The notes: generated by a model from the sequence alone, not told the origin. Shown: positions 5,536 through 40,451, counted from the first letter of the stretch. The stretch is DNA of 64,000 nt from Escherichia coli (GCF_044324875.1 NZ_CP172185.1); one strand, 5' to 3'. A program made the numbers and translations.

Positions 5536-5540
5536 GCGGA

Positions 5541-8670: not shown

Positions 8671-8681
8671 AGGAAAAATAT

Positions 8682-8761
8682 ATGAACAGGAAACAGAAGC
8701 AGGAACTGAAAGGCTTCTTACGTAAAGAAATTGCCAGGCTGGAAGATGTGGAATCTCAGTC
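8682..8761 (+). pseudogene. 5' part of a cargo gene split by the IS insertion
   Basis: AAGGA RBS and ATG at 8682; reading frame runs into the IS end at 8762. Confidence 0.6.
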
Positions 8762-8860
8762 TGCGTATTCCGCTCTATTCGATCACGGATTGGCATCGAA
8801 GTCCGATCAGCGATTCGCATCCATTCGATCAACCGGGAACTTAACTTTTTCTACCGCTTT

Positions 8861-9616: not shown

Positions 9617-9632
9617 ACTGTTGTTCCTTCTG

Positions 9633-11168
9633 TCAGTGGTAGTAGCCCGGACCACGCAGGTTTTCATGCTCTGAAGCATATGCCGGATGTTGTTCGCCCT
9701 GGCGGGATAATGGAAGCTCCAGGTTCTCCCGATGGTGACGCAGCAGATTGTCGATAAAGCGTCTGTCAGGGGCGTTATAGTGCAGGGCAACGTAACAGGC
9801 CTTTTCCAGCCGTTCCGGGCCGTATTTTTTCTGAAGTGCCAGCAGCCCCAGAACTGCACGATAAGCCAGTTCCGGATGGGGTTTTGCCTTCAGCATGGAT
9901 TCAACCACCCGGCCTGTGGACGGGCCCGTACGTTTTCCCTGCTCGATCAGGCGTTCCGGTGTCCATGTCCCGTGCTGCCGGTGGCGCTCTGGCATGTGAA
10001 GCGGATTGGTTGTGTGTTTATATTCATGTGTGCTGCGCGGATGTTGCGCCACACACTGCCCCTTGTGCCAGAGCTGTACCACCGACTGCCCCGCCTTCAG
10101 TGACAGACGCTGACCGACCAGTTCGTGTGGAACGGAGTACCAGTGACGGGCATATTCAACGTGGTAGTCAGGGCCAACCTTCACAGCTTTGTATTCCGTG
10201 TATTCATAAGGTGCCAGAGGCAGCGGAGAGAGTGCTGGCGCATCCAGTATGCGGAAGCGTTCTGCACGGGTTTGATTGCCGTACCCCTTCATTGGCCGGT
10301 TATTCATGTCTGTCAGTAACTCCCTAAGGCGCGCATTCAGCGCCCTGAGCGTGTGGAAGGTTTCATTACGGATGCGGGCAAGAAGCCATCGTTCAACGAT
10401 GAGGACGCCGTTTTCTGCTTTTGGTTTATCTTTAGGTTTGCGTGGTCGGGCCGGGATGATAACCGTGCCATAGTGCTCAGCCAGTGCCTGATAACTGTCG
10501 TTGATGACAGGCTCATATCGATCGGCCTTTTTCACTGCGCTTCTGAGGTTATCGGGGATGAGCAGCTTCGGTACGCCGCCCAGGAAGGTCAGGCAACGGC
10601 TGTGGGCATTTAACCATGACATCATGTCCTGACCTTCGCACGCTTCAACGTAGGTATAGTTGGACGCCCCCATTACGGCCACGAAGATTGCCACGCGGCG
10701 TATCTCACCGGTGTCCGGATTAATAACAGGAACCGTAGGACCACAGAAGTCGATAAAAAGCTTTTCGCCGGCACGATGCTCCTGGCGCATGGAGAGACGT
10801 CGCGTTTTTTTCCACTCCCGGTAGCAACGGCAGAAGTGCGAGTATCCCATCGCTTTGTTACCCGCCTGTGCCTTGTATTCCATCCACAACAGTTGCCGCG
10901 TCACACCTGGTTTTCTCATTTCCGTATCGAAGTACAACATGTCAGGCATTACAAGCTCTGATGCAAAGGTGTCTTTGGGCGGAAAAATGAGTTTCTCCAG
11001 CGTGTCATGGGATATATCAGCAGGTAATGGCCATGACAGAGAAGAGGCTTTGAAGCGGGCAAGAACCTCAAAAACGGTTGAGGCGCTGATGTGTAACGTC
11101 AGTCCGATACAACGGTTAGTCAGCTTCTTGTCGAACTTGAGCTGAAGGATCTTAAAACAGGTTTCCAT
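9633..11168 (-). CDS. istA: IS21-family transposase IstA
   Basis: ~512 aa from METCFKILQ; N-terminal HTH and integrase-like catalytic core typical of IstA. Confidence 0.85.
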   Translation of the reverse strand: METCFKILQLKFDKKLTNRCIGLTLHISASTVFEVLARFKASSLSWPLPADISHDTLEKLIFPPKDTFASELVMPDMLYFDTEMRKPGVTRQLLWMEYKAQAGNKAMGYSHFCRCYREWKKTRRLSMRQEHRAGEKLFIDFCGPTVPVINPDTGEIRRVAIFVAVMGASNYTYVEACEGQDMMSWLNAHSRCLTFLGGVPKLLIPDNLRSAVKKADRYEPVINDSYQALAEHYGTVIIPARPRKPKDKPKAENGVLIVERWLLARIRNETFHTLRALNARLRELLTDMNNRPMKGYGNQTRAERFRILDAPALSPLPLAPYEYTEYKAVKVGPDYHVEYARHWYSVPHELVGQRLSLKAGQSVVQLWHKGQCVAQHPRSTHEYKHTTNPLHMPERHRQHGTWTPERLIEQGKRTGPSTGRVVESMLKAKPHPELAYRAVLGLLALQKKYGPERLEKACYVALHYNAPDRRFIDNLLRHHRENLELPLSRQGEQHPAYASEHENLRGPGYYH

Positions 11169-11400
11169 AGTGCTCCTGGATTTTCTCTTTCTGGACATTG
11201 ACGTCTCCACTGGTTTAAACACGGCAATGGAGACTGTGGTGAAAAGAGTTAATTCCCGGAGTGACTGGCAGGATGCCAATCAATGATCGGAAGCATGCCA
11301 AATCGTGATCGATTGTGATGCCAAACTGTGATCGGAGATGGATGCCAAATCATGATCGATTCGAATGCCAAACTGCGATCGATTCAGATGCCATTTTGCA

Positions 11401-11641
11401 TCAGTCATCAGATATTCCATTCGGAATGGATATCAACGACGCCTGTATGCTCCAGGTATACCGCATAGCTCAGGCTGCACTACAGGCAAAACCGTCAGAT
11501 GGACTGGTTAGAGCAGTACGTTTCTATGAACTGGTAAAGCGTGAGAATCCGCCAGTCGAAACCGGAGCATGGCAAGACGCTGTTGACTGGGTGCTCAAAG
11601 AGGCTTGTCAGGTTGTAAACACTGGCATCAAAGGAGACTGA
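11401..11641 (+). pseudogene. 3' part of the cargo gene split by the IS insertion
   Basis: Removing the IS and one TSD copy joins 8682-8761 in frame to this segment, giving a 104-aa ORF. Confidence 0.6.
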
Positions 11642-11642
11642 T

Positions 11643-11852
11643 ATGGCTATTGCCGCAAGTTACACCATGCATCTCTATTGTGATTGTCGCCAGTGTACAA
11701 ATGGTAAATATCAAACGCCAGACTTCGGTGAATATATCGGTACGTCATGGACTGGCTGTGCAAAAGAGGCGCGTAAGGATGGCTGGCGAATAAGCAAAGA
11801 CAAAACTCGTGCTTTTGCGCCCGGGCATAAAGTTTTGAGGATTAACAAATGA
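11643..11852 (+). CDS. Small Cys-rich protein (69 aa), possible zinc ribbon
   Basis: AAGGAG RBS; CDC-x2-C ... C pattern; tightly packed in the operon. Confidence 0.5.
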   Translation: MAIAASYTMHLYCDCRQCTNGKYQTPDFGEYIGTSWTGCAKEARKDGWRISKDKTRAFAPGHKVLRINK

Positions 11853-12250
11853 CCACTATAACCAAAGAGCGACTACTGACAATCAGGCAGTGGCGCGAAA
11901 CATACGGACCTGGTAGCAACGTTGTACTGCCAGCCGAAGAAGCGGAAAAACTGGCACGGATTGCTTTGGCATCGCTGGAAGCAAAACCAATAGGTGCTTT
12001 CCACATTGCAGAACAGCAGGTCGATGGCACAAGTGACTACATCAAGGATGGGGAGTACCGCTTGCTGACATCTGAAGAACAAAAGATAGCCCAACTTTTA
12101 GGCGATGCATGGAACCTGTATTTTACATTGCCAGTTGAGCATCCAATGGGTAGAGATGAATTTTGCCGGGCAATTCATCATTGCCAAAATATGGTGTTGG
12201 CACGCCCTGCCATCAGGGCGCTGGCCAGTAAGGGGCAAGGCTATAAATAG
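11849..12250 (+). CDS. Hypothetical cargo protein (133 aa)
   Basis: Start overlaps the previous stop (ATGA); followed by a strong terminator. Confidence 0.5.
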   Translation: MTTITKERLLTIRQWRETYGPGSNVVLPAEEAEKLARIALASLEAKPIGAFHIAEQQVDGTSDYIKDGEYRLLTSEEQKIAQLLGDAWNLYFTLPVEHPMGRDEFCRAIHHCQNMVLARPAIRALASKGQGYK

Positions 12251-12256
12251 ATGAGC

Positions 12257-12285
12257 AAAACGCCCTCCTCCAGGGCGTTTATTTC
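12257..12285 (+). terminator. Rho-independent terminator closing the cargo operon
   Basis: Hairpin AACGCCCTCCTCCAGGGCGTT followed by a T-rich run. Confidence 0.6.
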
Positions 12286-12741
12286 AATGCACAATAGTGC
12301 ACAAATTTGCACAATTTTTTTGAACGACTTTTTGCCCTTCCGGCCCGTGTGGCGTCTGGATCCGTCGGGGATCCGTGCGTGCACGAAAAAAGGCCTTTTT
12401 CTGCGCGCAGGTGACGGGGGAACAGCCCGCGTTTCAGGGGGTAAATAGCATTCCCTGAACGATGTTGCAGTGACACAACAGAATGGCTGTATTTCTCACG
12501 CTGAGCGTGAAAAAGACGTAAGGGCTTTTGATTTGATGGGGTGAAAGATAAGGCCGTCAAAATCGCACTGAGGCAGCGAGAATATGTCGTCAGAGTTGCG
12601 GGGTTGCGTAAGCATCCGCCCGGCGATGATGGCTACAGGGCTGGAGATGTTGTGAAATTATCTGAAGGAATAACCAGCTTGCAGGAGAACCCGGGCAAAG
12701 TCAGAATAGCGGCAGGCATCAACTCAAAAGAGGATAATGTC

Positions 12742-13245
12742 ATGAGCCACTTTAATGATTTATGCCAGATCAATCGTGAAGCTGAAGAAAAACGCGCTGA
12801 GGCAGCTCAAATTTTGCGGGATGAAGCGGCAAGGCTGATTGATTTCTATGAAGAATGGCTGGGGCTTCCATCCATGTACTGGGAAGACGATGATGGCGAC
12901 CTGCACCGCTACGTGGAGACAGGCTTGCCATGTAAGACAGCGGCGGATTTTAGTCCTCTTTCAGTCCACAATATCGCATCTGCACCAGACAATATTTTCC
13001 GCATGGCCGTGCGAACCTGGGTTAAGTCATCTGACAGCAGCTACCCGGTAAGCGTGGTTATTGCACTTGAATTATATTCAGTAGATGCGGAACGGGTGTC
13101 TCTGAGAGTCCGGGTGGAAGACGATATTTCTGTTCGCGTATTTATCAATAAACCCAGCGAAGAAGCCTGGGGCGATGTTGTTATGCACATGAAAAAGCAC
13201 ATCGCTAATCACCTGAAAAAGCGAGCGCCATCAGCACTTCGTTAA
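12742..13245 (+). CDS. Hypothetical acidic protein (167 aa) next to the portal gene
   Basis: AGAGGA RBS before ATG at 12742; an upstream in-frame GTG at 12541 is an alternative start. Confidence 0.45.
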   Translation: MSHFNDLCQINREAEEKRAEAAQILRDEAARLIDFYEEWLGLPSMYWEDDDGDLHRYVETGLPCKTAADFSPLSVHNIASAPDNIFRMAVRTWVKSSDSSYPVSVVIALELYSVDAERVSLRVRVEDDISVRVFINKPSEEAWGDVVMHMKKHIANHLKKRAPSALR

Positions 13246-13311
13246 GCAGAGCTGGAGAGTCGGGGCATAAATTTTTTATGCCCCGGCGAAGCAGCAGACA
13301 AGCGAAGCGCG

Positions 13312-14367
13312 TCAGGATATGGGCTGGGTGTCTAACAGTGCGTAAGGGTTAAAACGGATCACCTCTTCGCCCAGCCAGTCGTTGACGTGTTTCATTGCTT
13401 CCATGACGGGCATCAGTTCGTTAATGGCAAACACACGGGCTGCCTTCTCCACATCCCCGAATGACCCCTTCTCACCCGGCATGGCCCCCATCAGCTGCGG
13501 CGGTACACGGTGCACGGACAGCACATCATCACGCGATGCAGCCTTGACGTTCATGAACTCATCCTTTGCGGTGATTTGCTGAAACGGCAAAATCTGTACG
13601 CCATCCTTACCACCTCCCGCCGCGTGGATGAGCAGATTTTTAAACGCCCCGCCACCACGCGCGCTTTGCAGTGTTTCCCGCAGTTTTTCCATGCTTTCAC
13701 GGTCAACCTGCGCCGCACCGATGTAGACAATACAGCCCGCGTGTGAGCCGTTATCGTAGTAGAGCTTGCGGAAGATATCGGCGGAATGTGACAGGCTGGC
13801 AGACAGCAGGCCGCCCAGGTAATCCGGCATCCCGTAAATCTCCTGGTTGATATCAGGATTCATCAGGTGGCATATCGTCCCCTCACGAAAGCGGTACTCT
13901 TCCTGTCCTTCCTGTATATACCACCATGATTTCATATCGCTGCCACGTCGCATGTATTTCGCCAGCGCCCGGCGCAGGGCCAGCGGTTCGCCAAGCATGT
14001 TGCGCCGCAGCTCAAGACAGGCATTACCGAACACAAACCAGTCCATCGCCACCCCGGCGAACTCCTGGCGGGACAGCAGAGGATGTGGAATATAGCAGCC
14101 CAGCAGCACATTACGTTTGAAGCTGAGCGCCGACTGGTGCCAGGACGTCTGGCGGGCAGCCCGTGCCAGTCCGTACCAGTCAACGGGCGTTTCAAACCAC
14201 CGCCCGTTGTCGGCGCAGTACATGCTGTCCAGCAGGTCGGCCCCTGACAGCCGGTAAGGTCCTTCAAACGTGAAGGCACTCAGTGTCGGGTCGCTTCGCA
14301 GGGAATCCGCAAGGCTGCCCTGCGCTGCGCGGGCGTTCGTACGTCGTTGTTTATTTTTTCTGCTCAT
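13312..14367 (-). CDS. Q: Portal protein, P2 gpQ-like
   Basis: 351 aa, adjacent to and co-oriented with the large terminase, as in P2. Confidence 0.85.
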   Translation of the reverse strand: MSRKNKQRRTNARAAQGSLADSLRSDPTLSAFTFEGPYRLSGADLLDSMYCADNGRWFETPVDWYGLARAARQTSWHQSALSFKRNVLLGCYIPHPLLSRQEFAGVAMDWFVFGNACLELRRNMLGEPLALRRALAKYMRRGSDMKSWWYIQEGQEEYRFREGTICHLMNPDINQEIYGMPDYLGGLLSASLSHSADIFRKLYYDNGSHAGCIVYIGAAQVDRESMEKLRETLQSARGGGAFKNLLIHAAGGGKDGVQILPFQQITAKDEFMNVKAASRDDVLSVHRVPPQLMGAMPGEKGSFGDVEKAARVFAINELMPVMEAMKHVNDWLGEEVIRFNPYALLDTQPIS

Positions 14368-16118
14368 CAGAACTCCGTAACACTGAAGGGGGCGGCATCA
14401 TGTTCACCGCCGACAGGTTCGTTGATAACGGCCAGCATGGTGGCCCATGCAAGATCGCCATGGCTTACGCCTCTTGCGCGATCTGTTTCGTAGGTGATAA
14501 ATCCGGCCTGCGTTTTTGTTTTGCGTACCGCGTTAAAGGCGCTCACCAGTTCGCGCTCGCTGCGGTCGTACTCCCACCGCCCGGCGCGCATGAGCTGCAG
14601 CATCTTCAGAACCAGCGTGCGCTTTGATGACAGGGTGAAGGTGTAGGGAATGGCTGCCGGAAAAAAGCGCTTCACAATCTGATACACCGCATCCCCGTGA
14701 CCGCCGGTTACGTCAATACCGATATGCTCAACGTTATAGCGAAAGGTGAACTCTTCAATCACCTTCGCCTGCGCCTCAAACTCCAGCCCCTGCACCCGCC
14801 GCGTCTCCACGGTGCGAAAACGCCCGCCCGGTACGGCTGGCGGCACCACCACGACAACCGCCCCGCTGTCACCGTTCCCGCTACTGCCGTTGGCGTCGTA
14901 CCCAATCCACACAGGGCGGTTCCCCATCGGACGCGGTGCAAACGGCTTCCAGTCCGGCCACTCGTCGTATCCGTCAACACCGCAGCCAATCAGGATATTC
15001 AGGTTAAATGCCGATTCCCCTTCGCGAGCAAATTCACACATGTAGAGATTGCGGAACTCGTCTTCAGTGTTATTGCGCCGGATTTTGTCAATGTTGGTTA
15101 ACGTCCATCCCTGACTGACCACATCTTCCAGCGTCACAATTTGCCGCCAGATATAGTCAGGACAGATAAGGCCGTTATGAAGCGCATTCCAGCTCACATC
15201 AAAATGCTGACGTTTATGAGTACGAAGCCCTTCATTCCAGTGATCGCCGTTCCAGTATGCATACGCCTCATGTGTTTCACTTGATGGCGTGGAAAAATAG
15301 GTACACCGCAAACCATCCAGCGTTGCCATAGCAGCAGCCACCTTGCGCAGCTCTGCGAAACGCCCCGTCCAGAAAAACTCATCAAAATACAGATTCCCTG
15401 TGTACGCTTGCGCGGTGGCCGCAGAAGTGCCGAGAAAATGCAGCTCTGCACCGTTGGAGAGGATGACTTTATCGCCCCCTTTCAGTTCCACATCAACTTC
15501 AGATGCAGCCTTCTGAATAATGCTTTTAAACTGGAGCGCCTGACGACGAGACGCAGACAAAAAAATCTGGTTACGCTGGTAAGGTTGTGCCACATCGTCA
15601 CGCAGCGCCATCAGCAGCGCTTCCTGCGCAAAATACCAGGTCGCCCCAATCTGGCGGGATTTCAGGATCATCCTGTCAGTAATTCCGGCACGCTCACAGG
15701 CACCGATAGCATCAAGCCATTTGCGCTGGTGTCCGGCCAGCCTGTCGGTAATTTTTTCCCGCAGCGCCGCGATCTGTTCCGGCGTGAAATGATTTTTGCG
15801 TTTTTTCGCCCGGCCTTTCTTTCCTGTTGCCGTCTCATCCGGCAGACCGTCATGCAGCTTTTTAAGCTGACGGGTCAGCAAATCAATTTCCTTAAAGTCC
15901 CCGCCTGTTTTATTCTGTTTTTCCGTGAGCTGAATGAGTCGCGCATCCATGGACTGCGTGACACGCTGAACCGGGGGCGTCTCATCCCACTGGTCGCGTT
16001 TTTTCCACGAATGGATCGTGTTCTGGTTGATACCCATAAGGCGGGAAATTTCCGCAACAGGGTAACCCTGCCAGTACAGCTGGCGTGCCCGCTGGCGAAC
16101 AAATGTATCCTGAATCAT
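14367..16118 (-). CDS. P: Terminase large subunit (ATPase), P2 gpP-like
   Basis: 583 aa; divergent from the scaffold gene as in P2. Confidence 0.85.
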   Translation of the reverse strand: MIQDTFVRQRARQLYWQGYPVAEISRLMGINQNTIHSWKKRDQWDETPPVQRVTQSMDARLIQLTEKQNKTGGDFKEIDLLTRQLKKLHDGLPDETATGKKGRAKKRKNHFTPEQIAALREKITDRLAGHQRKWLDAIGACERAGITDRMILKSRQIGATWYFAQEALLMALRDDVAQPYQRNQIFLSASRRQALQFKSIIQKAASEVDVELKGGDKVILSNGAELHFLGTSAATAQAYTGNLYFDEFFWTGRFAELRKVAAAMATLDGLRCTYFSTPSSETHEAYAYWNGDHWNEGLRTHKRQHFDVSWNALHNGLICPDYIWRQIVTLEDVVSQGWTLTNIDKIRRNNTEDEFRNLYMCEFAREGESAFNLNILIGCGVDGYDEWPDWKPFAPRPMGNRPVWIGYDANGSSGNGDSGAVVVVVPPAVPGGRFRTVETRRVQGLEFEAQAKVIEEFTFRYNVEHIGIDVTGGHGDAVYQIVKRFFPAAIPYTFTLSSKRTLVLKMLQLMRAGRWEYDRSERELVSAFNAVRKTKTQAGFITYETDRARGVSHGDLAWATMLAVINEPVGGEHDAAPFSVTEF

Positions 16119-16272
16119 TTCTCCCCCTCATGTGATTCAGGCAGTTTACTCACCCCTTACAGGCCTCCTGCCATGCCCGGTGTTGTCGGCATTCGCTTAC
16201 AACAAACGCACTTTGTCTGTCCCTGCCCCGTTTTGCCATCATGAGACAAACGATCATCACGAGGGCCCGACA

Positions 16273-17109
16273 ATGCCTGAACAGAAAAAAACATCCCGTA
16301 AAACATTCCGCGTGGCCGTTTCCGGTCCCACCGCAGACGGTCGCGAAATCAGCGCCGCAGATTTGCGCGCGGCGGCCAGTAACTTCAACCCTGAGATTTA
16401 CGGCGCACGCGTGAACGTGGAGCACTGGCTTTCACCGGTTCCGTCCAGTGAATTTTCCGCCATGGGTGATGTGACGGCACTGAGCACAGAAGAAATCACC
16501 GAAGGTCCGCTGGTCGGTCGTACTGCGCTGTATGCGGAAATCGAACCCACCGACCGCATGAAAAATCTGGTCTCCCGGGGTAAGAAAATTTACTCCAGTA
16601 TTGAGCTGGCACGAAATTTCACCCCTACGGGCACCCCGTATCTTATTGGCCTTGCCATGACAGACACCCCGGCAAGCATCGGCACGGAGCGTCTTCAGTT
16701 CGCCCTGCAGCAGCGCCGTTCGGTCATGACCTTCAATAATCAGCAGACGGAAGCACCGATGTTCTCTGACGCCATTGAGGCTGAAGTGATCGAACTGACG
16801 GAGCGCCGCAGCGAGGAAGGTGCGCAGTGGTTTAACCGCGTGATGAACATGATTGGGCGAGGACGCAGGGCTGACGACACCCGGTTCTCCCGCATTCATG
16901 ACGCCGTTGAGGGGATAGCCTCATCGCATGCCGACCTTCTCGACCGCTTCAGTGCACTGGAATCGCGCCATCAGGCAGACAGACAGAAAGTCGCCACCCT
17001 GTCCACTGAGCTGGCAGAGCTGAAAAACAGACTGCGCGGACTGGACGCTGATCAGCAAAGTCGTTTTACGGCAACCGGCGGGCAGTCCAGACAACTGGCT
17101 GACTACTGA
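16273..17109 (+). CDS. O: Capsid scaffolding protein, P2 gpO-like
   Basis: Start at MPEQKK; size and position between P and the capsid gene. Confidence 0.75.
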   Translation: MPEQKKTSRKTFRVAVSGPTADGREISAADLRAAASNFNPEIYGARVNVEHWLSPVPSSEFSAMGDVTALSTEEITEGPLVGRTALYAEIEPTDRMKNLVSRGKKIYSSIELARNFTPTGTPYLIGLAMTDTPASIGTERLQFALQQRRSVMTFNNQQTEAPMFSDAIEAEVIELTERRSEEGAQWFNRVMNMIGRGRRADDTRFSRIHDAVEGIASSHADLLDRFSALESRHQADRQKVATLSTELAELKNRLRGLDADQQSRFTATGGQSRQLADY

Positions 17110-17137
17110 CAGAAATAACCACAAGAGGTGATAACCG

Positions 17138-18277
17138 ATGAATCGGATCATGAGCGATGCCGCGCGGGCCGAGCTTTTTGCTTACCAGGCACAACAGGCG
17201 GAGATGAATAACATCACGATATCTGCGCTCTCCTCCCGCTTTTCGGTACAGCCGGCAGTGCAGCAGAGATTTGAAAACGCATCAAAGGAAAGCCATGATT
17301 TTCTTCAGAAAGCCAACAGCATTGGTGTGACAGAGCAGAAAGGTGAAAAGGTACTCCTGGACACCACCGGGCCGGTTGCGCGCACGAACAGCAGTTATGA
17401 CGGTACAAATCGTCGTAACCCGCTGAATGTGGTGGACATGAAAGCGCGACGCTATGAGTGCGAGCAGGTGAACTACGACACCTTCATCTCCTACCCTCAG
17501 CTTGACATGTGGGCCGGACACCCTGACTTCCAGCTGCGTGTGAGTCGCCAGATTGCCAGACAGGTGGCACTTGATCGCATCATGACAGGTTTTAACGGTA
17601 CGCACCATGCGGAAGTCTCGGATATAAAAAAACACCCGCGACTTGAGGACGTCAATAAGGGGTGGCTGCAGGATATCAGGGACCAGGCCCCGCAACGCGT
17701 CATGAAAGACGTGATGCTGACTGCGCGCAATATGGACAATTCGGTGGCATACACAGGCAGATACGCCAATCCCGATGCACTGGTCCAGGATGCACGCTCA
17801 TCCCTGCTTGACGAATGGCACAAGGACGCAGACGACCTCGTTGTCATCATGGGGCGAAACCTCTTTAACTCCCTGCGCCTGCCGGTCCTGAACAGTATCA
17901 GCATGCAGAATGCGAATGCCGAACTGCTTGCCGGACAGCTCATTGTGTCAACGCGGACCATTGGCGGCCTTGATGTGTACCTTGCGCCATTTTTCCCGGC
18001 TCAGTCAATGCTCATCACCTCATTCAGCAACCTGTCGGTTTACTGGCAGAAGGGGTCCATGCGTCGTCTCATGAAGGATGAGCCCGAATACAACCGTATC
18101 GCCATCTATCAGTCCGTTAACGACTGCTATGTGGTTGAGGACCATGGTAAGTGCGCACTGATTGAGAATATCAGCTTTGCCGAATATGACCATGACGCGC
18201 CGGACTGGTACCGGGACGCCACAAAAGCACTGTCAGCGCAGGCTGAAGACAGGGATGCAGGGGAAGAGGAGGATTAA
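17138..18277 (+). CDS. N: Major capsid protein, P2 gpN-like
   Basis: 379 aa; position after scaffold. Confidence 0.8.
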   Translation: MNRIMSDAARAELFAYQAQQAEMNNITISALSSRFSVQPAVQQRFENASKESHDFLQKANSIGVTEQKGEKVLLDTTGPVARTNSSYDGTNRRNPLNVVDMKARRYECEQVNYDTFISYPQLDMWAGHPDFQLRVSRQIARQVALDRIMTGFNGTHHAEVSDIKKHPRLEDVNKGWLQDIRDQAPQRVMKDVMLTARNMDNSVAYTGRYANPDALVQDARSSLLDEWHKDADDLVVIMGRNLFNSLRLPVLNSISMQNANAELLAGQLIVSTRTIGGLDVYLAPFFPAQSMLITSFSNLSVYWQKGSMRRLMKDEPEYNRIAIYQSVNDCYVVEDHGKCALIENISFAEYDHDAPDWYRDATKALSAQAEDRDAGEEED

Positions 18278-18279
18278 CC

Positions 18280-19062
18280 ATGCTGACACCGGCACAGGCT
18301 CATTTCCAGCGCGTGATGGCTTTACGGGCAGGAACGGCAGCAGAAAACGAGGATATCGTGGCCCGCACGGCTCATGAGCAGGTCCTTCACCGTCTGCGCC
18401 TGGCACAGCAACGCATAAAGGGCGTCCAGGCAAAAGCGGCAAAGGCCGCGCTCAAGCGTGAAATGCTGCCGGGTTTTGCAGGCTGGATAGACGGCACGCT
18501 GGAAGCCGACGGCGGACAGCAGGATGAGGTGATAGCCACACTCATGGTGTGGGCCGTGGACTGTGGCGACCTGGCGCTTGCACTGCGCATCGGGGATTAT
18601 GTGGTTCGCCACAACCTCACGATGCCTGACAACTTCGGGCGTACGGCAGCCACGGTACTGACCGAGGAAATCTGCAACCCTGTTCTGACACAGGCCGGAA
18701 CGGATGCACACGCCGATTTGTCCGGCTACATCGAACCGCTGGACACCCTCTGGCAAATTGTCGCGAACCGGGACATGCCCGATGAGGTCCGCGCCAAGCT
18801 GTGCAAGGCATGCGCCTTTGCCCGTCGTGGCCTGACCGATGCCGACAGCATGGCGGTGAGTCTGAAGCTGTTCCGTGAGGCAATGCACCTTAACCCGAAT
18901 GCGGGGGTAAAACGTGAGATTGCCACGCTTTCACGGGCCCTGAAAAAGGCCGGACAGGATGAAGCCGCTGCCGCACAGGAGCCTGCGGCACAGAAAGATA
19001 CAACCAGAGAACAGACCACGACGCCGAAGGCGAAAGCGAAAGCGAAGGCGAAACGTGGTTAA
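18280..19062 (+). CDS. M: Terminase small/endonuclease subunit, P2 gpM-like
   Basis: 260 aa with basic C-terminal KAKAKAKAKRG tail; position after capsid gene. Confidence 0.75.
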   Translation: MLTPAQAHFQRVMALRAGTAAENEDIVARTAHEQVLHRLRLAQQRIKGVQAKAAKAALKREMLPGFAGWIDGTLEADGGQQDEVIATLMVWAVDCGDLALALRIGDYVVRHNLTMPDNFGRTAATVLTEEICNPVLTQAGTDAHADLSGYIEPLDTLWQIVANRDMPDEVRAKLCKACAFARRGLTDADSMAVSLKLFREAMHLNPNAGVKREIATLSRALKKAGQDEAAAAQEPAAQKDTTREQTTTPKAKAKAKAKRG

Positions 19063-19164
19063 CGGCTGACCCCGTCAGAAGGCGGCGTGCCGGGCGTTCC
19101 GGTTACGGTTTTCCGTTCCCCTTACACCCGGCACCCACCGCTTTTTTTTCTGAAGGAGCGATTT

Positions 19165-19659
19165 ATGAGCATGGTCGCAAGACCGGAAGCCGCCCCTGCG
19201 CGGGACGACATCACCGACACCGACGACGGCGACGCCACCATCACCGCCGGGGCATTCTGGCCGGAGATTGTGCTGCGGGAGCTGCGCCTTGCAGTACGCC
19301 TGCCGGGCCGCATCACCTCCACACGTCTGGCGCACGTTGCCACGGGAGCCGTGGCTCACGTCACGCGGGAGCTGGAAGAGTGGCAGAAGGCGCAGTCTGC
19401 CGCAGGGTTCAGCATCCTCGCAGAAGTGCCTGCCGCCACCATCAACGGTGAGAGCGTCAACGTATGGCATTACCGCAACGCCGTCTACAGCGCCACCCGC
19501 GCCCTGATTCTGGAACGCTGGCGGGATGTGGACACCACTGATAAAGGGGACCGCCGGGCTGACGCACTGGATGAGCAGATGGAAGACTTATGGCGCGATG
19601 TGCGCTGGTCCGTGGCAGATATTCTGGGTCGCCCCCGTCTTTTTGCGGAGCTGGTGTGA
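19165..19659 (+). CDS. L: Head completion protein, P2 gpL-like
   Basis: AAGGAG RBS, start at MSMVAR; ~164 aa. Confidence 0.7.
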   Translation: MSMVARPEAAPARDDITDTDDGDATITAGAFWPEIVLRELRLAVRLPGRITSTRLAHVATGAVAHVTRELEEWQKAQSAAGFSILAEVPAATINGESVNVWHYRNAVYSATRALILERWRDVDTTDKGDRRADALDEQMEDLWRDVRWSVADILGRPRLFAELV

Positions 19660-19856
19660 TGAAAGTGAGGGCACTCCAGGGGGATACCGTCGATTTACTC
19701 TGTTTCCGGCACTACGGCACCACGCAGGGGGTGACCGCACAGGTACTTGATGCCAATCCAGGGCTCTGCCGCCAGGTAATTCTGGAAGCGGGACAGGAGG
19801 TGGAGATGCCGGAGCCGGAAAGGAAACAGCAACGCGAAAAGGTAAAGCTATGGTGA
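19659..19856 (+). CDS. X: Tail protein X-like (65 aa)
   Basis: Start overlaps L stop; small ORF preceding the holin as in P2. Confidence 0.6.
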   Translation: MKVRALQGDTVDLLCFRHYGTTQGVTAQVLDANPGLCRQVILEAGQEVEMPEPERKQQREKVKLW

Positions 19857-20140
19857 CGGGATTTTTTCAGCGCGTCAGTGACTGGATCACCTTCTGGGCG
19901 TCAGTGACGGCAACAACCATTGGTGTTATGACCATCAGCGAAAAAATTGCGCTGGCCGGGCTGCTTCTGGGGTCACTTTCCGCCATCCATGCCTGGTGCC
20001 ACCGCAGGCGTACGGAGCAGGCAATGAAGCGCCGCAATGACCTTATCGCCCGCATCCTGGCACGTTCAGAAAACCGCGAGCTTCACGACGGTGAGAGACG
20101 GGCACTGGACAGCGTGAGACAGGACGGAGAAGAGCGGTGA
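19850..20140 (+). CDS. Y: Holin, P2 gpY-like
   Basis: 96 aa with hydrophobic TM segments and charged C-terminus. Confidence 0.7.
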   Translation: MVTGFFQRVSDWITFWASVTATTIGVMTISEKIALAGLLLGSLSAIHAWCHRRRTEQAMKRRNDLIARILARSENRELHDGERRALDSVRQDGEER

Positions 20141-20682
20141 AACTGCCGGTAAAACGTTATGCGGTGGCGGCCATTGTGGCGCTGGGCGTCTCCATGGCAC
20201 CCGGTGAACTGAGAACCTCACGGGAAGCACAGATAAAAATCGCCACCCGGGAAGAGTGCCGGGCGACACCGTACCGTGATATTGCAGGAGTAATGACCGT
20301 GGGATGTGGTTCAACAGGGGGCGTGGAGAACCGGGTTTACGGAGAAAAGGAGGTGGCCCGCCGCTGGGTGAATGACCTGCGGCACGCGGAAAACTGTATC
20401 AACCAGAACTTCAGCGGTGCCGCCATGCCCCAGTCCGCCTTTGAGGCGATGACCGACGCGGCGTTCAACGTCGGCTGTACCGGCCTGATGTGGTACCGGG
20501 ACAGGAGCGGCAACCGGCAGCGCACCACCATCTGGAAGCACGCACAGGCGCACCGCTGGGTGGCGATGTGCGGGAGACTGACCGATTTTGTCAACAGTGG
20601 CGGACGCCGCTCACAGGGGCTGGTTAACCGCCGGGAGGAGTTCAGACAGTGGTGTCTTCGCGACACGGGAGGCAGCACATGA
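20137..20682 (+). CDS. K: Endolysin, P2 gpK-like
   Basis: 181 aa between holin and spanins; N-terminal hydrophobic segment. Confidence 0.7.
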   Translation: MKLPVKRYAVAAIVALGVSMAPGELRTSREAQIKIATREECRATPYRDIAGVMTVGCGSTGGVENRVYGEKEVARRWVNDLRHAENCINQNFSGAAMPQSAFEAMTDAAFNVGCTGLMWYRDRSGNRQRTTIWKHAQAHRWVAMCGRLTDFVNSGGRRSQGLVNRREEFRQWCLRDTGGST

Positions 20683-21086
20683 GACCGGTTTACGCCGTGA
20701 TTGTTGCCCTCATGGTGACCACCCTGACGGCGGCGGCCATGTGGCAGTCATACCGGCTGGGGCGTGCCGGTGAGGCACGTGACGCCGCAGAGCAGCAGCT
20801 GGGCGAATACAGCCGGGCGCTGCGTGAGTCCTCCGCCGTTATCAGCGATGCCTCCGCCGTACTGCATGAGGTGATGACGCAGCGACAGAAAAGGGCACAG
20901 GAAGGAGAAGTCAGACGTGAACAGCTTCGCGAAATTGCTGCGACGGATGAGTGCGCCGGCACTCTTCCTGACCACCGTTTTACTGACCGGCTGCGCGAAC
21001 ACACGGAACGCGCCACTGCCCGCGCCCTCCTTCCGGTTCATTCCGGCGGGACTGACGACGGGAACACGGCCCCCGCCCTTCCCTGA
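20679..21086 (+). CDS. lysB: Inner-membrane spanin (Rz-like), P2 LysB-like
   Basis: N-terminal TM helix then charged coiled-coil-like region; GGGAGG RBS. Confidence 0.7.
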   Translation: MRPVYAVIVALMVTTLTAAAMWQSYRLGRAGEARDAAEQQLGEYSRALRESSAVISDASAVLHEVMTQRQKRAQEGEVRREQLREIAATDECAGTLPDHRFTDRLREHTERATARALLPVHSGGTDDGNTAPALP

Positions 21087-21231
21087 ACACCCCACATGGG
21101 GAAATATCGGGATATGGAGCGACAGCCTCCTGGATGCACTGGAAACCTGCAACGCAGACAAACAGGCCATTGAGGCGCTGGAGCGCCGGAGACTCAACCG
21201 ACAGAACGGAGGGGGACATGCTGAAAAGTAA
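20917..21231 (+). CDS. lysC: Outer-membrane lipoprotein spanin (Rz1-like), P2 LysC-like
   Basis: Starts inside lysB in another frame; signal peptide with lipobox LLTGC; Pro-rich. Confidence 0.65.
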   Translation: MNSFAKLLRRMSAPALFLTTVLLTGCANTRNAPLPAPSFRFIPAGLTTGTRPPPFPEHPTWGNIGIWSDSLLDALETCNADKQAIEALERRRLNRQNGGGHAEK

Positions 21232-21682
21232 ATCCCTGAGCACACACATGAGTACAGCGTGCCGGTGGTGCAGGGCCAACCCGGAAAAGTTCACCGTGTT
21301 CATTGAACGTGGCGGGATAGAGACCACCGGCGAGACGCCGACGTTCGTGTACAACTACCGGCTGGTGATGTTCGTGATGGACTACACGGGCGATCTGGAC
21401 AACCTGACGCTTCCACTGATTGTCTGGCTGGCAGAGAACCAGCCGCAGTTGCTGCTTAATCCTGAGCGCAACAACGATATTCAGTTCACGGCGGCCATTA
21501 ACGACGACGACAGCGCGGACGTGCTGTTTGAGCTGCCGTTACGTGAACGCGTGCGCGTCACCCGCAGGGATGACGGCACCCTCATGACAGAACATCTACC
21601 GGAGCCGAAATCACGCATCCCGCAGGACGGCGACTGGTCACACATTCTGGAGGATGTGACGTGGAACATTGTCACCGGATAA
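21218..21682 (+). CDS. R: Tail completion protein, P2 gpR-like
   Basis: GGAGGGGGA RBS, start MLKSKS; ~154 aa. Confidence 0.7.
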   Translation: MLKSKSLSTHMSTACRWCRANPEKFTVFIERGGIETTGETPTFVYNYRLVMFVMDYTGDLDNLTLPLIVWLAENQPQLLLNPERNNDIQFTAAINDDDSADVLFELPLRERVRVTRRDDGTLMTEHLPEPKSRIPQDGDWSHILEDVTWNIVTG

Positions 21683-21739
21683 CACGCGGAGAATGTTATG
21701 GGGAAACTGAGATACCGTAACCTCGTTCCCGCTGAAGGA

Positions 21740-35127: not shown

Positions 35128-35379
35128 ATGTTCCGTTGTCCCCTATGCGGTGCATCCGCACGTATCCGCACCAGTCGCAATGAAAATGATTCAGGCACAG
35201 TTCGCCTGAAGTACTACCAGTGCAATAACCTCGAATGCGGGATCGGCTTTACCACACTGGAGGGTTTTAACAAATTCACATCAAAACGCGCCCCGTCGCC
35301 GCAGGGTACAGAGCGGATACCGTGGGAAGATTTTCCGGGATCTCACAGGGGGAATGCTCAGATGAATCTTGATATTTAA
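35128..35379 (+). CDS. ogr: Ogr/Delta-family zinc-finger late-gene activator
   Basis: MFRCPLCGASARIRTSR...YYQCNNLECG resembles the recalled P2 Ogr MFHCPLC...HQCQNVNC. Confidence 0.8.
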   Translation: MFRCPLCGASARIRTSRNENDSGTVRLKYYQCNNLECGIGFTTLEGFNKFTSKRAPSPQGTERIPWEDFPGSHRGNAQMNLDI

Positions 35380-35521
35380 GAACAATAATCAGGTTGAGAG
35401 GACATCATAAGGCAAGTAGATTAACGGCAGATACTTTCCCGCAACCACGGGCAAGTATTTAATTATCCATGATGAAATATGACCTAAATTGTTTTTTGCC
35501 CGCCGGAAAGCGGGCATTTTT

Positions 35522-35737
35522 TTATTCTTTTGTGGTTATGGGGTCATCAGGAACCACGTGCAGATTATATTTTTGTTTTTTTGGCGTTCCTCCGGCAGCA
35601 ACGAGTTCATCAATAAGACACTGACACGCCTGAACATCCCGGGCATGTCTTAGTTTCACCTTTATTGATTTAACCTTATCCTCACCGGAGGAGAAATGCA
35701 GTTCAATCTCAATATCGTTTCTTCGGAACAATCTCAT
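35522..35737 (-). CDS. Small hypothetical protein (71 aa); the only intact copy of a thrice-repeated gene
   Basis: AGGGGGG RBS; decayed paralogues at ~36840-36905 and ~37500-37560; palindromic AT-rich upstream region. Confidence 0.4.
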   Translation of the reverse strand: MRLFRRNDIEIELHFSSGEDKVKSIKVKLRHARDVQACQCLIDELVAAGGTPKKQKYNLHVVPDDPITTKE

Positions 35738-36094
35738 ACGCCCCCCTGAATATATCAGAAATGCTAGTATCGAAAAATGAGAAAACAGTTAGACAGGAGA
35801 AACATATTAACACAAATCATTTATACCTATAGATGAAATTATAATTTCATTCATGAATATGATAGATAACTATATTGTGAACAAAATGAAAAATGGCTAA
35901 ATTAAAAATGGGCATGGAGGAATGCCCGGTTATCAATATAATGTGACGTAGATCATTGTTTTGCCCGCCGGAGAGCGGGCATTTTTTTTGCGCCTGCCAT
36001 CGAGGCGCCTTCCCTGGCGCACACAAAGCAGCCCTGATTTTCCATGAAAACTTCAGGGTTGAGCTGCGGGCACAAAGTGAGTAGATTAGCTACG

Positions 36095-36189
36095 GGTACC
36101 TCCCCCTGACAACAGGAAGGGTGTCCATTATCCATGATATACAAACGAAAAGTCTTGTTTTTTGCCCGCCGAAGCGCGGGCATTTTTTT
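36095..36189 (+). ncRNA. Candidate sRNA unit S1 (promoter plus intrinsic terminator)
   Basis: -35 TTGAGC (36059-36064), 17-bp spacer, -10 TAGATT (36082-36087), then ~95 nt with a CCTTCC/GGAAGG stem-loop ending in the hairpin and T-run. Confidence 0.35.
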
Positions 36190-36315
36190 ATGCATCAGAC
36201 AAGATACAGCCCACCCCAACTGACACCTGAAATATTGCCGCAACAAAAAGAAACAGTTAAATTACGCGCGGGTGCCTTTCGGCTGATGGCCGGAGGGAAA
36301 ACCTGAAGGCCGGAT

Positions 36316-36549
36316 GTGGAAAGGCCCCGGAAAACATTTCTGTTTAACCGAGGCCCTAACCGCATTACCTTGACAAGTGAAAGGTTAGCGCCTCTCCGGA
36401 AAAGGAGCAAGTGCTATGTCGCAAAAATCGCTTACGGCCATCACGTTCTGCGTGACGGCAATCCTCATCATCTGGATATTGCACGGTTCGCTGTGCGAAA
36501 TACGGATGAGCTTCTGGGGAGCGGAGTTTGCGGCGTTCTTACAATGTAA
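36316..36549 (+). CDS. mok-like overlapping reading frame of the hok-like locus
   Basis: 77-aa ORF starting ~100 nt upstream of and overlapping the hok-like ORF in another frame. Confidence 0.4.
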   Translation: MERPRKTFLFNRGPNRITLTSERLAPLRKRSKCYVAKIAYGHHVLRDGNPHHLDIARFAVRNTDELLGSGVCGVLTM

Positions 36550-36556
36550 GAAGTAA
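36416..36556 (+). CDS. Hok/Gef-family type I toxin (46 aa)
   Basis: MSQKSLTAITFCVTAILIIWILHGSLCEIRMSFWGAEFAAFLQCKK: TM helix then SLCEIR and E(V/F)AAF motifs as in plasmid R1 Hok; AAGGAG RBS. Confidence 0.7.
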   Translation: MSQKSLTAITFCVTAILIIWILHGSLCEIRMSFWGAEFAAFLQCKK

Positions 36557-36645
36557 GGAAACCGCGACGGGGGAGCAATCCCCCGTCAATCGGTTGCCAG
36601 GGTAAGGTCGATAAGGCACCCTATCTCACAGACATGAACAACAAA

Positions 36646-36676
36646 CCCGCAGCATAAAAACTGCGGGTTTTCTTTT
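36646..36676 (+). terminator. Intrinsic terminator of the hok-like transcript
   Basis: Hairpin CCCGCAG-CATAAAAA-CTGCGGG followed by TTTTCTTTTT. Confidence 0.6.
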
Positions 36677-37265
36677 TGGTGTCCTCACCGACTTGAAACA
36701 GTGATCAGACTATAAGACAAAGCCCGCAATGTTGCGGGCTTACTCTACCTCTCGAAAATGTGGTCACTGCGTGGACATACGCTGATACAAATCCTTTATA
36801 TCAATAAATTAAATCTTTGTTTTTTTCATCAACAATGATTTAACCTTATCCTCACCGGAGGAGAAATGCAGTTCAATCTCAATATCGTTTCTGTGGAACA
36901 GCCTCATAAGACAACCTCCTGAATTCATCAGAAACACAGTCAACTGAAAACCAGAAAGCAGACAAACAGTGGACACACATTAATACAAATCATTTATACC
37001 TATAGATGAAATTGCAGTTTCATCTATAACATGACAGGTAACAATATTGTGAAAAAACTCAAAACTCGTTAGATTAAAGACGGACAGAGCAATGCTACTT
37101 TATCAATAACATGTAACCTGTACTTCCTTATTTTGCCCGCCGAAGCACGGGCATTTTTTTTGCGCCTGCCATCGAGGCGCCTTCCCTGGCGCACACAAAG
37201 CAGCCCTGATTTTCCATGAAAACTTCAGGGTTGAGCCAAAAGCACAAAGACAGTAGATTAACCAC

Positions 37266-37359
37266 GGGTGCCTTCCACCTGACAACAGGAAGGGTGTCCA
37301 GTATCAATGACAGACAACTCACATTGCTGTTTTGCCCGCCGGAAAGCGGGCATTTTTTT
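37266..37359 (+). ncRNA. Candidate sRNA unit S2
   Basis: Same -35/17 bp/-10 (TTGAGC...TAGATT at 37231/37254) and terminator architecture as S1. Confidence 0.3.
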
Positions 37360-37914
37360 ATTCTTTTGTGGTTATTGGGTCATCAGGAACAACATGCAGA
37401 TTATGCTTTGATTTTTTTGGTGTTATTACAGCAGCAACGAGTTTATTAATAAGACACTGACATGCCTGAACATCCCTGACATATCATAATTTCACTTTAT
37501 TTTTTTAGCTTGTCCTTTCTGGAGCAGAAATATCTCAACATCGTTTCTGTGGAACAACCTCATTTGCCCCTGAATGTATCATAAATATCAGCATCGGAAA
37601 ACCAACAGCAATACAGAAGAAACATGTTAATGCAAATCACTTATACCTATAGATGAAATTACAGTTTTGTTCATAAATATGATAAGTAACTATATTGTGA
37701 ATAAAATGAAAACTAGCTAAATTAAACGTGGGCATGGTGGAATGCCTCGTAATCAATAATACATGATCCGTACTTCCTTGTTTTGCCCGCCGGAAAGCGG
37801 GCATTTTTTTGGCGGTTACCATCGCCTCACCTTCCTGGTTCACATGAAGCAACCCTGATTTTCCATGAAAACTTCAGGGTTGAGACAAAAGCACAAAGAC
37901 AGTAGATTAACCAC

Positions 37915-38007
37915 GGGTACCTTCCACCTGACAACAGGAAGGCTGTCCAGTATCAATGACAGACAACTCACATTGCTGTTTTGCCCGCCGGAAAGCGGGC
38001 TTTTTTT
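37915..38007 (+). ncRNA. Candidate sRNA unit S3
   Basis: -35 TTGAGA 37879, -10 TAGATT 37902, terminator hairpin 37983-38000. Confidence 0.3.
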
Positions 38008-38112
38008 GGCAGTTATCATAGCCGCACCTTCCTGGCACATATGAAGCAACCCTGATTTTCCATGAAAACTTCAGGGTTGAGACAAAAGCACAAAAACAGT
38101 AGATTAACCACG

Positions 38113-38208
38113 GGTGCCTGCCACCTGACAACAGGAAGGGGTGTCCATTATCCATGATATACAAACGAAAAGTCTTGTCTTTTGCCCGCCAAAGCGCGGG
38201 CATTTTTT
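38113..38208 (+). ncRNA. Candidate sRNA unit S4
   Basis: -35 TTGAGA 38077, -10 TAGATT 38100, terminator hairpin 38184-38201. Confidence 0.3.
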
Positions 38209-38420
38209 TATGCATCAGACAAGATACAGCCCACCCCAACTGACACCTGAAATATTGCCGCAACAAAAAGAAACGGGTGCCTTTCGGCTGATGGCCGGAG
38301 GGAAAACCTGAAGGCCGGATGTGGAAAGGCCCCGGAAAACATCTGTGTTTAACCGAGGCCTGACCCTTCCTACCGTGACAAGTGGAAGGTTAGCGCCTCT
38401 TTGTAAAAGGAGCAAGCGCT

Positions 38421-38561
38421 ATACCGCAAAAAACGATTATTGTTGGCATTTTATGCCTGACAATAACCCTGGTCATCTGGATGGTCCACGATTCGTTATG
38501 TGAATTCAGCTTTGATATCTGGGGAGCGCGTTTTGCGGCGTTCTTGCAGTGTAAACCGTAA
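38421..38561 (+). pseudogene. Degenerate second hok-like copy
   Basis: Start codon ATG replaced by ATA, LCEIR changed to LCEFSF; the matching mok-like frame (38321-38503) is truncated. Confidence 0.6.
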
Positions 38562-38711
38562 GAAACCGCAGCGGGGGAGAAATTCCCCGCTATCCGGTTG
38601 TTGGGGTGGGCCGATATGGCGCCCTTTCCCTGTAGAGACAAAACAAAAAACCAGATTTGCCCGCCATTGAGAGGGCTTTTTTGTCACCCTCACCAGTGAG
38701 GGCATCATCAT

Positions 38712-38939
38712 TCAGAGGCGCGTAAGCCACCCGGCGTTAACATCCTGCCTGTCAACCCTGGCCGCAGAGTCTGAACGGCAGGTACCGGAAGGAGTACCAA
38801 AAACATCCCTGACAAGTTCCGCCACCTTCCCGATATCATCAGGTGTCACATTCCTCACCTCGGCCGTGATCCGTGGCGTACCATCATCGTTAACAAGAGT
38901 GGCTTTAAAGCTGGTGCGAAGGGAAAACAACATCAACAT
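38712..38939 (-). CDS. Hypothetical small protein (75 aa)
   Basis: ORF only; between the repeat array and serS. Confidence 0.25.
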   Translation of the reverse strand: MLMLFSLRTSFKATLVNDDGTPRITAEVRNVTPDDIGKVAELVRDVFGTPSGTCRSDSAARVDRQDVNAGWLTRL

Positions 38940-39094
38940 CCCCTCCCTTTGGTTCGTTGCACTGACGGCACGACACCATCAGGAAAAAGAAAAGCCCACA
39001 ACGTCAGTATTGTGGACTTTTTTCTTCAAAGATGGACATTATCTGGACACATGAAAATAAAATCCATTTATTTTCATATAGTTAAGTACCATGC

Positions 39095-39117
39095 AAAAGC
39101 GCCCGCAGGCGCTTTTT
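39095..39117. terminator. Intrinsic terminator downstream of serS
   Basis: AAAAGCGCCCGCAGGCGCTTTTT hairpin, symmetric A/T flanks. Confidence 0.6.

Positions 39118-39137: not shown

Positions 39138-40451
<1,314 letters not shown>

Follow-up and report, generated by a model that had tools for sequence, protein, structure and literature searches.

A repeat array of small RNA gene-like units, an orphan protein gene and a hok/mok/sok locus at the right end of a P2-like Escherichia coli prophage

Organization of the array

The window, a 64,000-nucleotide (nt) stretch of Escherichia coli DNA (GCF_044324875.1, NZ_CP172185.1), contains a P2-like prophage whose right end is occupied by an array of repeated elements, located between the late activator gene ogr and the right attachment site (attR). 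The whole array spans 35392-39094 and consists of eight units that resemble small RNA (sRNA) genes, designated S and U, together with a gene for an orphan protein (M), a hok/mok/sok locus (K1) and decayed copies of the latter two. These elements are probably a string of independent transcription units, a cargo reshaped by recombination, and not a three-component system. An earlier sequence-only reading of this DNA had described three recurring modules, M, S and K, with one intact copy and further decayed copies of M and K. Repeat search and alignments reproduced these modules at the same positions, and the lesions that distinguish M from M′ and M″, and K1 from K′, have been located.

A 30-nt element, T (TTTTGCCCGCCGGAAAGCGGGCATTTTTTT), is present in nine copies and scores as an intrinsic terminator on the plus strand. 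Between 35300 and 39100, the repeat finder returned 15 direct-repeat families, and the array contains 16 terminator-like hairpins, as compared with 4.5 ± 2.0 in shuffled sequences. From left to right, the elements are ogr, S0-T, M (minus strand)/U1-T, S1-T, K1 with its terminator, an att-arm-like stretch, M′/U2-T, S2-T, M″/U3-T, S3-T, S4-T, K′, T*, R, and the att arm with its core. They are listed here by window position; bit scores refer to a covariance model built from seven distinct S sequences.

35128..35379, plus strand: ogr/Delta-like zinc-finger late activator, the final core gene of the P2-like prophage (RefSeq annotation of an identical locus)
35392..35525, plus strand: S0, beginning 13 nt past the ogr stop; TTGAGA-17-TAGATT, 5′ hairpin and T; fold z = -3.3
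35522-35737, minus strand: M, intact 71-amino acid orphan gene, convergent with ogr (WP_001236182.1, hypothetical)
35833..35850, no strand: perfect 18-bp palindrome ATGAAATTATAATTTCAT upstream of M, read from the sequence; may serve as an operator
35873..35990, plus strand: U1, divergent from M; TTGTGA-17-TAAATT, GGGCAU..AUGCCC hairpin and T; 48.9 bits, E 1e-8
35991..36190, plus strand: S1, with the dyad CCCTGA-N15-TCAGGG upstream and TTGAGC-17-TAGATT at 36059-36087; predicted RNA of ~98 nt; T
36234..36690, plus strand: K1, intact hokW-sokW-type locus; hok mRNA ~36270-36625, mok 36316-36549, hok 36416-36556, terminator 36643-36677
36758-36830, no strand: att-arm-like stretch, ATGTGGTC-N5-GTGGACA then AAATCCTTTATATCAATAAATTA, between K1 and the truncated M′
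36836..36907, minus strand: M′, truncated, 5′ part only; ATG at 36907, open for 32 codons
37045..37160, plus strand: U2, upstream of M′; 39.6 bits
37161..37359, plus strand: S2, full S unit; 151.3 bits
37358-37563, minus strand: M″, decayed by deletions, a frameshift and an internal stop; open for 23 codons; same lesions in related loci L005, L022 and L023
37693..37810, plus strand: U3, upstream of M″; 42.6 bits; weak rseX-like architecture match
37811..38008, plus strand: S3, full S unit; 143.3 bits
38009..38209, plus strand: S4, full S unit; 152.3 bits
38239..38652, plus strand: K′, dead hok copy; start ATG changed to ATA, and 15 nt with the hok -10 element missing
38656-38685, plus strand: T*, diverged copy of the shared terminator (repeat family D2, 70%); aligns with the final T of related locus L004
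38712-38939, minus strand: R, 75-amino acid orphan open reading frame (ORF), the last before attR
39095-39109, no strand: att core AAAAGCGCCCGCAGG, the right prophage boundary, within the serS terminator

The sequence-only reading had closed the region at 38700; the array continues with T* and R. The S unit that it counted in four copies corresponds to the four full units S1-S4, which end at 36189, 37359, 38008 and 38209, and the family grows to eight when S0 and U1-U3 are included. The match that it had named as refuting, a known and annotated hok locus containing all of the modules, did not turn up; RefSeq annotates only hok and M, the latter as a hypothetical protein.

The array resides within a P2-like prophage

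On the right, serS (39138-40430, minus strand) and its flanking sequence are 99% identical to those of strain K-12 up to window position 39095, where K-12 homology stops; the left side is occupied by a P2-like prophage, including its tail genes, gene D and ogr. The core AAAAGCGCCCGCAGG is a 15-bp direct repeat common to attL, beside the integrase gene, and the right junction in strain LH10-b-1 (L006), which carries the same locus with 99.9% identity to the window. Because this repeat sits at 39095-39109, the DNA from ogr to 39094 belongs to the prophage and not to the chromosome. In addition, the ogr-S0-T-M-U block is found in prophages at four att sites (serS, ihfA, copA and zapB), and these two observations together rule out a chromosomal array beside the prophage, as had been supposed from the sequence at first reading. 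R is likewise ~90% conserved in prophages at other att sites and has no match in PHROG, NCBIfam or PADLOC. The LH10-b-1 prophage is otherwise identical but lacks ~17.5 kb corresponding to window positions 4143-21713, apparently with the replication and head genes among them; it is therefore a defective derivative that shares this right-end array.

Probably, the 3.7 kb from ogr to attR make up the accessory (moron-type) end of this prophage, a P2-like relative of the Xuanwuvirus P88. The segment lies inside the att boundaries, varies between syntenic prophages and carries its own regulatory signals, as P2-like cargo does. Morons of P2-like phages have classically been described at two positions, A-Q (tin/old) and G-FI (Z/fun) (PMC3573123). 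The array resembles them as non-essential cargo with its own promoters and terminators that varies between syntenic prophages and includes toxin-antitoxin genes, but it differs in its position and in being dominated by non-coding repeat units, not protein genes. The ogr-attR interval would be a third cargo position of P2-like phages, occupied here by hok/sok or hicAB.

K1 is a hok/mok/sok locus with a dead second copy

The hok ORF of K1 (46 amino acids) matches Pfam HOK_GEF (PF01848; independent E-value 9.8e-7; residues 7-44 against model positions 5-42 of 42) and PHROG 251, "MokW-like host killing" (E 8.5e-22). Its score against NCBIfam HokA, 30.7 bits, is under the curated cut-off of 89, and so it is not the HokA equivalog. 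The mok frame begins with GTG and runs for 77 codons (36316-36549), overlapping hok at 36416-36556. In the minimum-energy fold of 36270-36625, GGGUGCCUUUCGGCU pairs with the 3′ end (...AAGGCACCC), forming the tac/fbi lock that is typical of hok mRNAs; the fold has an energy of -164.9 kcal/mol (z = -8.1) and was equaled by none of 100 shuffles. The Rfam sok/hok leader (RF01794) is matched by both K1 (46.2 bits) and K′ (48.1 bits) with E ~1e-8, under the gathering score of 59 in each case, and the K1 leader contains a terminator-like hairpin that could serve an antisense RNA. The Pfam and PHROG matches, the overlapping mok frame and the tac/fbi fold, along with 90% identity to the locus directly after ogr in P88 and 79% identity to hokW-sokW of the Stx2 prophage Sp5, uphold the assignment of K to the hok family that had been made from motifs.

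For hokW-sokW of Sp5, experiments have demonstrated toxicity, its relief by the antisense RNA and an involvement in phage release (Takada et al., 2021; PMC8621323). K1 aligns over its full length with this locus and with the hok locus of P88 (NC_026014), sharing with them the GGGUGCC 5′ end, the overlapping mok frame, a 46-amino acid Hok with SLCE..EFAAFLQCK, and the 3′ fold-back element. The terminator and the position between ogr and the att arm are also as in P88, where, however, hok follows ogr directly, whereas K1 is set apart from ogr by ~850 bp of M, U and S units. K1 differs from both relatives in that its locus has been duplicated, with a dead second copy. On this footing, K1 is a genuine hok/mok/sok locus of the hokW-sokW type, and the toxin part of the array is already known. 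By homology to hok/sok and hokW-sokW, the two ends of a stable hok mRNA would pair with each other and so lock it, translation of Hok would be coupled to that of mok, and an antisense Sok RNA would block mok, such that loss of Sok would free the membrane toxin.

K′ retains a frame of 46 codons (38425-38561), which opens with ATA in all array variants. On its minus strand, at 38463-38436, is a strong, near-consensus promoter-like site, TTGTCA-16-AATAAT, oriented for an antisense Sok-like RNA. Conceivably, K′ may persist as an orphan antitoxin gene.

Eight S and U units form a single family

The covariance model recovers U1-U3 (U1 at 35873-35988) along its own entire length, with E-values from 1e-8 to 1e-6, and matches S0 at 35392-35523 with 117.8 bits; S0 also aligns with S1-S4. 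S0 starts 13 nt past the ogr stop codon, and hence the S/U family includes the 3′ flank and terminator of ogr itself. Each unit displays the layout of an sRNA gene, in which promoter hexamers of its own and a GC-rich stem followed by at least seven T residues bound a non-coding unit of 50-300 nt, in agreement with the portrayal of S as a promoter-to-terminator sRNA-like unit in the sequence-only reading. Small ORFs running through the units were rejected because their frames shift between copies. U1 and U3 share a 12-codon frame (35908-35946, plus strand, MGMEECPVINIM; 37728-37766, plus strand, VGMVECLVINNT), which U2 is without; translation of this frame would be leaderless, as its start nearly coincides with the predicted transcription start.

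Among the seven distinct S copies, the -35 block GGTTGAG is invariant at 7/7 columns and the -10 block AGTAGATTA at 9/9, whereas only 4 of the 16 spacer columns are invariant and no length changes are seen. Fixation of both hexamers while the spacer diverges is the pattern that would be expected of a working promoter. The hexamers of S1-S4 read TTGAGN-17-TAGATT and those of the U units TTGTGA-17-TAAATT, such that TTG....TA..TT is held at equal spacing. S1-S4 also share the CCCTGA-N15-TCAGGG dyad immediately upstream of the -35 element, which could be a binding site for a regulator.

Downstream of the promoter is a 5′ hairpin whose sequence differs among S0, S1-S4 and the variants in L003, and whose pairing is nevertheless kept. 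None of its eight pairs is invariant, yet 85% of the alignment cells are paired, as compared with 38-47% in slid controls; seven pairs change on one side via G.U and one changes on both sides. G.U pairs, which are frequent here, form only in the plus-strand RNA. The covariation score was equaled by 1 of 500 shuffles, with the proviso that the alignment holds just 13 related rows and was fitted to the model. On the 3′ side of the hairpin are a conserved UAUC(A/C)AUGA stretch, a segment of ~20-25 nt that varies between subtypes, and then T; U1 carries the invariant ATTGTGAA block. The predicted RNAs (81-100 nt) fold as a hairpin, an open middle and a terminator. Similarity between units can extend past these borders, in that the 3′ part of S4 and the next 65 nt are 99% identical to those of S1 (repeat family D8).

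Thus, the S/U units look like sRNA genes; their transcription is inferred from these signals, as would be any target of theirs or any function for M. They may specify RNAs of ~80-100 nt that are made in the lysogen and have an Hfq-type base-pairing build, with the variable segment as the likely target-recognition part. The S0 RNA could also derive from the ogr 3′ untranslated region.

Similar units are known elsewhere. The five sRNAs LhrC1-5 of Listeria are encoded in a tandem array, much as S and U occur in several paralogous units. The prophage-encoded, Hfq-type sRNAs of E. coli (for example, Pas, AgvB, AsxR and DicF) are likewise autonomous promoter-to-terminator units of 80-100 nt, with a 5′ stem-loop, an open middle, a U-tailed terminator and several paralogs with divergent putative seeds, features that are predicted from the sequence in the present case. 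They differ in that S and U match none of them in sequence or in Rfam, where the best scores are ~20-26 bits as against gathering scores of at least 50. Moreover, Pas, AgvB and AsxR reside on lambdoid or Stx prophages and not on P2-like ones (bioRxiv 10.64898/2026.05.13.724894). An identity of S/U with Pas or another known sRNA was rejected on the lack of an Rfam match and on distribution, since the Pas sRNAs occur on lambdoid prophages in >1,300 genomes, versus 30 genomes for S/U. A descent of the S 5′ half or the U region from ogr or from the N-terminal domain of long M homologs was also discarded, as no blastn match in phage records and no tblastn signal was obtained.

M is a rare orphan protein gene

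M gave no match in Pfam, NCBIfam, PADLOC or PDB, and its sole PHROG match is to a family without an assigned function. Searched exhaustively, 1.8 billion representative proteins yielded eight matches in all. Apart from close E. coli copies and fragments, these comprise proteins of 128 and 133 amino acids, whose C-terminal half aligns with M at 42-47% identity, and a stand-alone form of 57 amino acids. M corresponds to the C-terminal domain of rare 128-133-amino acid proteins of other P2-like prophages, where the gene is the last before attR and convergent with ogr. Among 100,044 species genomes, M relatives were found in only one Citrobacter and one Sodalis, and none of the distant M loci examined with the covariance model has an S/U-like unit. 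The 57-residue relative (L011, 6001-6174) is located after the primase of a P4-like satellite with AlpA, Ash, epsilon-like and Toprim genes, and adjoins a 159-amino acid ORF for which no Pfam match is recorded. An AlphaFold2 model of M is unreliable (pLDDT 49) and suggests only a beta-beta-alpha unit. A likeness of the M N-terminus to CsrA, noticed by eye, found no profile support and was dropped.

The region upstream of M contains the 18-bp palindrome, and inverted-repeat arms (GATGAAA/TTTCATC) are retained at the M′ copy and decayed at M″. A weak minus-strand promoter for M may share its -35 region back to back with the U promoter. M would then be expressed divergently from U, possibly under the control of the palindrome at its promoter.

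Distribution and modular recombination

M together with S/U units occurs in 30 of 5,426 complete E. coli genomes (0.55%), always after ogr, and is absent from the GenBank phages and PLSDB plasmids searched. Pattern scans of IMG/VR and metagenomes with the terminator and promoter pair returned the same E. coli arrays and two high-GC loci that share the terminator pattern only; the remaining single promoter-pair matches were taken as chance without inspection. In 1,677 genomes and ~200 phage records, conversely, nearly every match is confined to the hok part. In other phages, the similarity to the hok module begins 45 nt past the S terminator and never takes in S. Without M and S, this module is found directly after ogr in P88-type P2-like phages, and also in Stx phages. 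M with S/U and without hok is found in turn in three loci (L003, L004 and L015), which are organized as ogr-S0-T-M-U-T-S-S-T, followed by hicAB or directly by R. The association of M, S and K in one set, as perceived in the window at first, thus dissolves, as hok occurs without M and S, and M and S/U occur without hok.

In E. coli 23CRST011, whose prophage is at ihfA (L003, 5955-6555), a hicA/hicB type II toxin-antitoxin pair lies directly after the last T, where the window has K′. Because hicAB replaces K′ there, the position after the last S unit seems to be a site of cargo insertion.

Entire modules distinguish the array variants (L005, L022, L003/L004 and the window type) from one another, and the junctions fall in identical repeat stretches. 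Taking the S1-to-S2 interval out of the window gives L005, and taking out the M-to-M′ interval gives L022. The 5′ halves of S1 and S2 are identical, and M′ shows 94% identity to M over its 72 nt. Arrays with an identical M differ in the variable segments of S and U. Since the variants share the very same lesions in M′, M″ and K′, these lesions are old. A single intact M is found beside ogr in each variant, suggesting selection for one copy. In a metagenomic copy of the array (L021, ~13752 onward), an IS1 end is inserted in the truncated M′. An intact set next to the prophage with decayed copies behind it had been proposed as the outcome of duplication and decay. The copies do exist, but all of them are inside the prophage, their decay is old and common to the variants, and the differences among variants stem from unequal homologous recombination between repeats. 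Unequal crossing-over between identical stretches would duplicate or delete modules, surplus copies would decay, and one intact M beside ogr would be retained.

The att-arm-like stretch at 36758-36830 consists of two GTGG(T/A)C repeats followed by AAATCC..TATCAATAAATTA, which resembles an IHF site. Its resemblance to the real attR arm (39028-39086) and to the arms in L007, L009 and P88 was judged by eye. It may hint at an origin of the K1-bearing segment in the end of a different P2-like phage, with the stretch as the scar of two fused prophage ends. The broader notion that M upstream regions are fossil att arms, and the array a stack of dead prophage ends, was abandoned because local alignment to the real arm is at chance level; among the candidates only 36758-36830 looks arm-like, and loci of the "phage A" type turned out to be the same array.

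Interpretation

Any account of the array has to start from what is established, namely its anatomy and prophage location, the hok membership of K1, the homology of the eight units, and the distribution and variants described above. The probable reading, in which S/U units, M and K1 are independent passengers that recombination has rearranged, accommodates all of these. Several results weigh against it. The promoter scan is not enriched overall (9 sites versus 6.9 ± 2.9 in shuffles), the proposed M promoter, TTCACA-17-ATTCAT, is weak and fails the scan criteria, and the K1 Sok promoter could not be placed by consensus; the hexamers of K1, P88 and Sp5 that are homologous to the K′ site match poorly. 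The fold z-scores of the S/U units are modest (-1 to -3.3), and support from covariation is thin because the independent sequences are few (effective number 1.4). No Rfam family reached its gathering score with S/U, the best scores being terminator-driven and amounting to 17-26 bits (rseX, RyhB, AgvB and Trp leader) against thresholds of 41-56. Likewise, a complementarity search within the window gave no convincing S/U target, only self-antisense matches and chance 11-12-mers.

An alternative that is unlikely but retains some weight is that S and U are repeats at the DNA level, copies of the ogr 3′ end and terminator that have spread by recombination between related prophage ends and, if active at all, serve as transcriptional insulators or as homology for cassette exchange. 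S0 is, after all, literally the ogr 3′ flank plus terminator, the cargoes K′ and hicAB each come immediately after a copy of T, and the att-arm-like stretch inside the array hints at a fusion of two prophage ends; T is also an ordinary terminator in unrelated high-GC organisms. Neutral repeats, however, would not fix both hexamers while the spacer diverges, nor would they keep a hairpin through G.U and compensatory changes that are sensible only for a plus-strand RNA. Furthermore, the 5′ half of S is unlike ogr or any phage record, and the M upstream region is no more similar to the real att arm than expected by chance.

A type I-like pair, in which the neighboring divergent RNAs would control M as a toxin or regulator, with U, S or both pairing to its ribosome-binding site, is improbable. 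Known type I toxin-antitoxin pairs that are encoded divergently include tisB/istR-1, shoB/ohsC and zorO/orzO, and the array is like them in placing small RNA-like units divergently upstream of a gene for a small protein. U and M diverge, and their -35 elements stand back to back (TTGTGA/TTCACA); the S1 5′ arm CCUCCCCCUGA can form ~9 bp with the M ribosome-binding site UCAGGGGGG; U2 and U3 carry CUUCCUU, which resembles an anti-Shine-Dalgarno sequence; and the non-coding upstream part of the decayed M copies is better conserved than the coding part. Yet M is hydrophilic, whereas the toxins of such pairs are hydrophobic, and it matches no toxin family in Pfam or PADLOC. Its distant homologs stand alone without an S/U-like unit, and eight RNA units face a single intact M. 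Complementarity between RNA and mRNA is short, and other prophages whose M is identical have an S without the C-run and a U with another variable segment; because the variable segments differ beside an identical M and the ~9-bp pairing is not conserved, a role for S/U as the cognate antitoxin of M is disfavored.

A more far-reaching proposal would make S/U an expressed and diversifying family of prophage regulatory RNAs built on one scaffold (promoter type, 5′ hairpin, UAUCNAUGA stretch, identical terminator and hypervariable targeting segment), with the always-retained M as its dedicated protein partner or regulator. Jointly they would constitute an undescribed phage RNA-protein system for host reprogramming or phage-satellite conflict. 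Relatives of M do occupy the same att-proximal spot in other P2-like prophages, and another is carried by a P4-like satellite; the proposal is nonetheless improbable. Finally, an integrated three-component system, in which the S RNA or M would add control over Hok, is very improbable: the M-S-K order does recur in the window, and S1-K1 and S4-K′ are adjacent pairs that were each duplicated together (D8, 99%), but hok homology in other phages starts beyond the S terminator, M/S arrays have hicAB or no toxin locus at the hok position, and a complementarity search turned up none between S and hok.

If the S/U units are transcribed as the favored reading of independent units predicts, they would represent an undescribed multi-copy sRNA family on a P2-like prophage. 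They would also illustrate, in compact natural form, how sRNA genes duplicate, diverge in their targeting segment and decay via recombination between shared promoters and terminators. On the other side of the balance, the toxin part is not new, and the RNA and M parts occur in just 0.55% of complete E. coli genomes. The interest that is left attaches to the eight sRNA gene-like units, a rare and unannotated family, and to the orphan protein, undescribed passengers in a third cargo position whose value is mainly as a lead for RNA sequencing and annotation.

Other features of the window

The early region of the same P2-like prophage contains side-by-side Rfam matches to the Hfq-binding RNA isrK (4575-4650, plus strand; 60 bits) and to C4 antisense RNA (4686-4773, plus strand; 80 bits), both above the gathering score. 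The pair resembles the antirepressor control modules of P1/P7 or Gifsy type. Outside the prophage, 53809-54203 contains a tRNA (53809-53893), an RtT-like element (53940-54074) and a single 28-nt CRISPR-DR4 repeat (54176-54203, minus strand). The position of this cluster fits the serW/clpA-infA region, in which E. coli retains a remnant type I-F CRISPR repeat.

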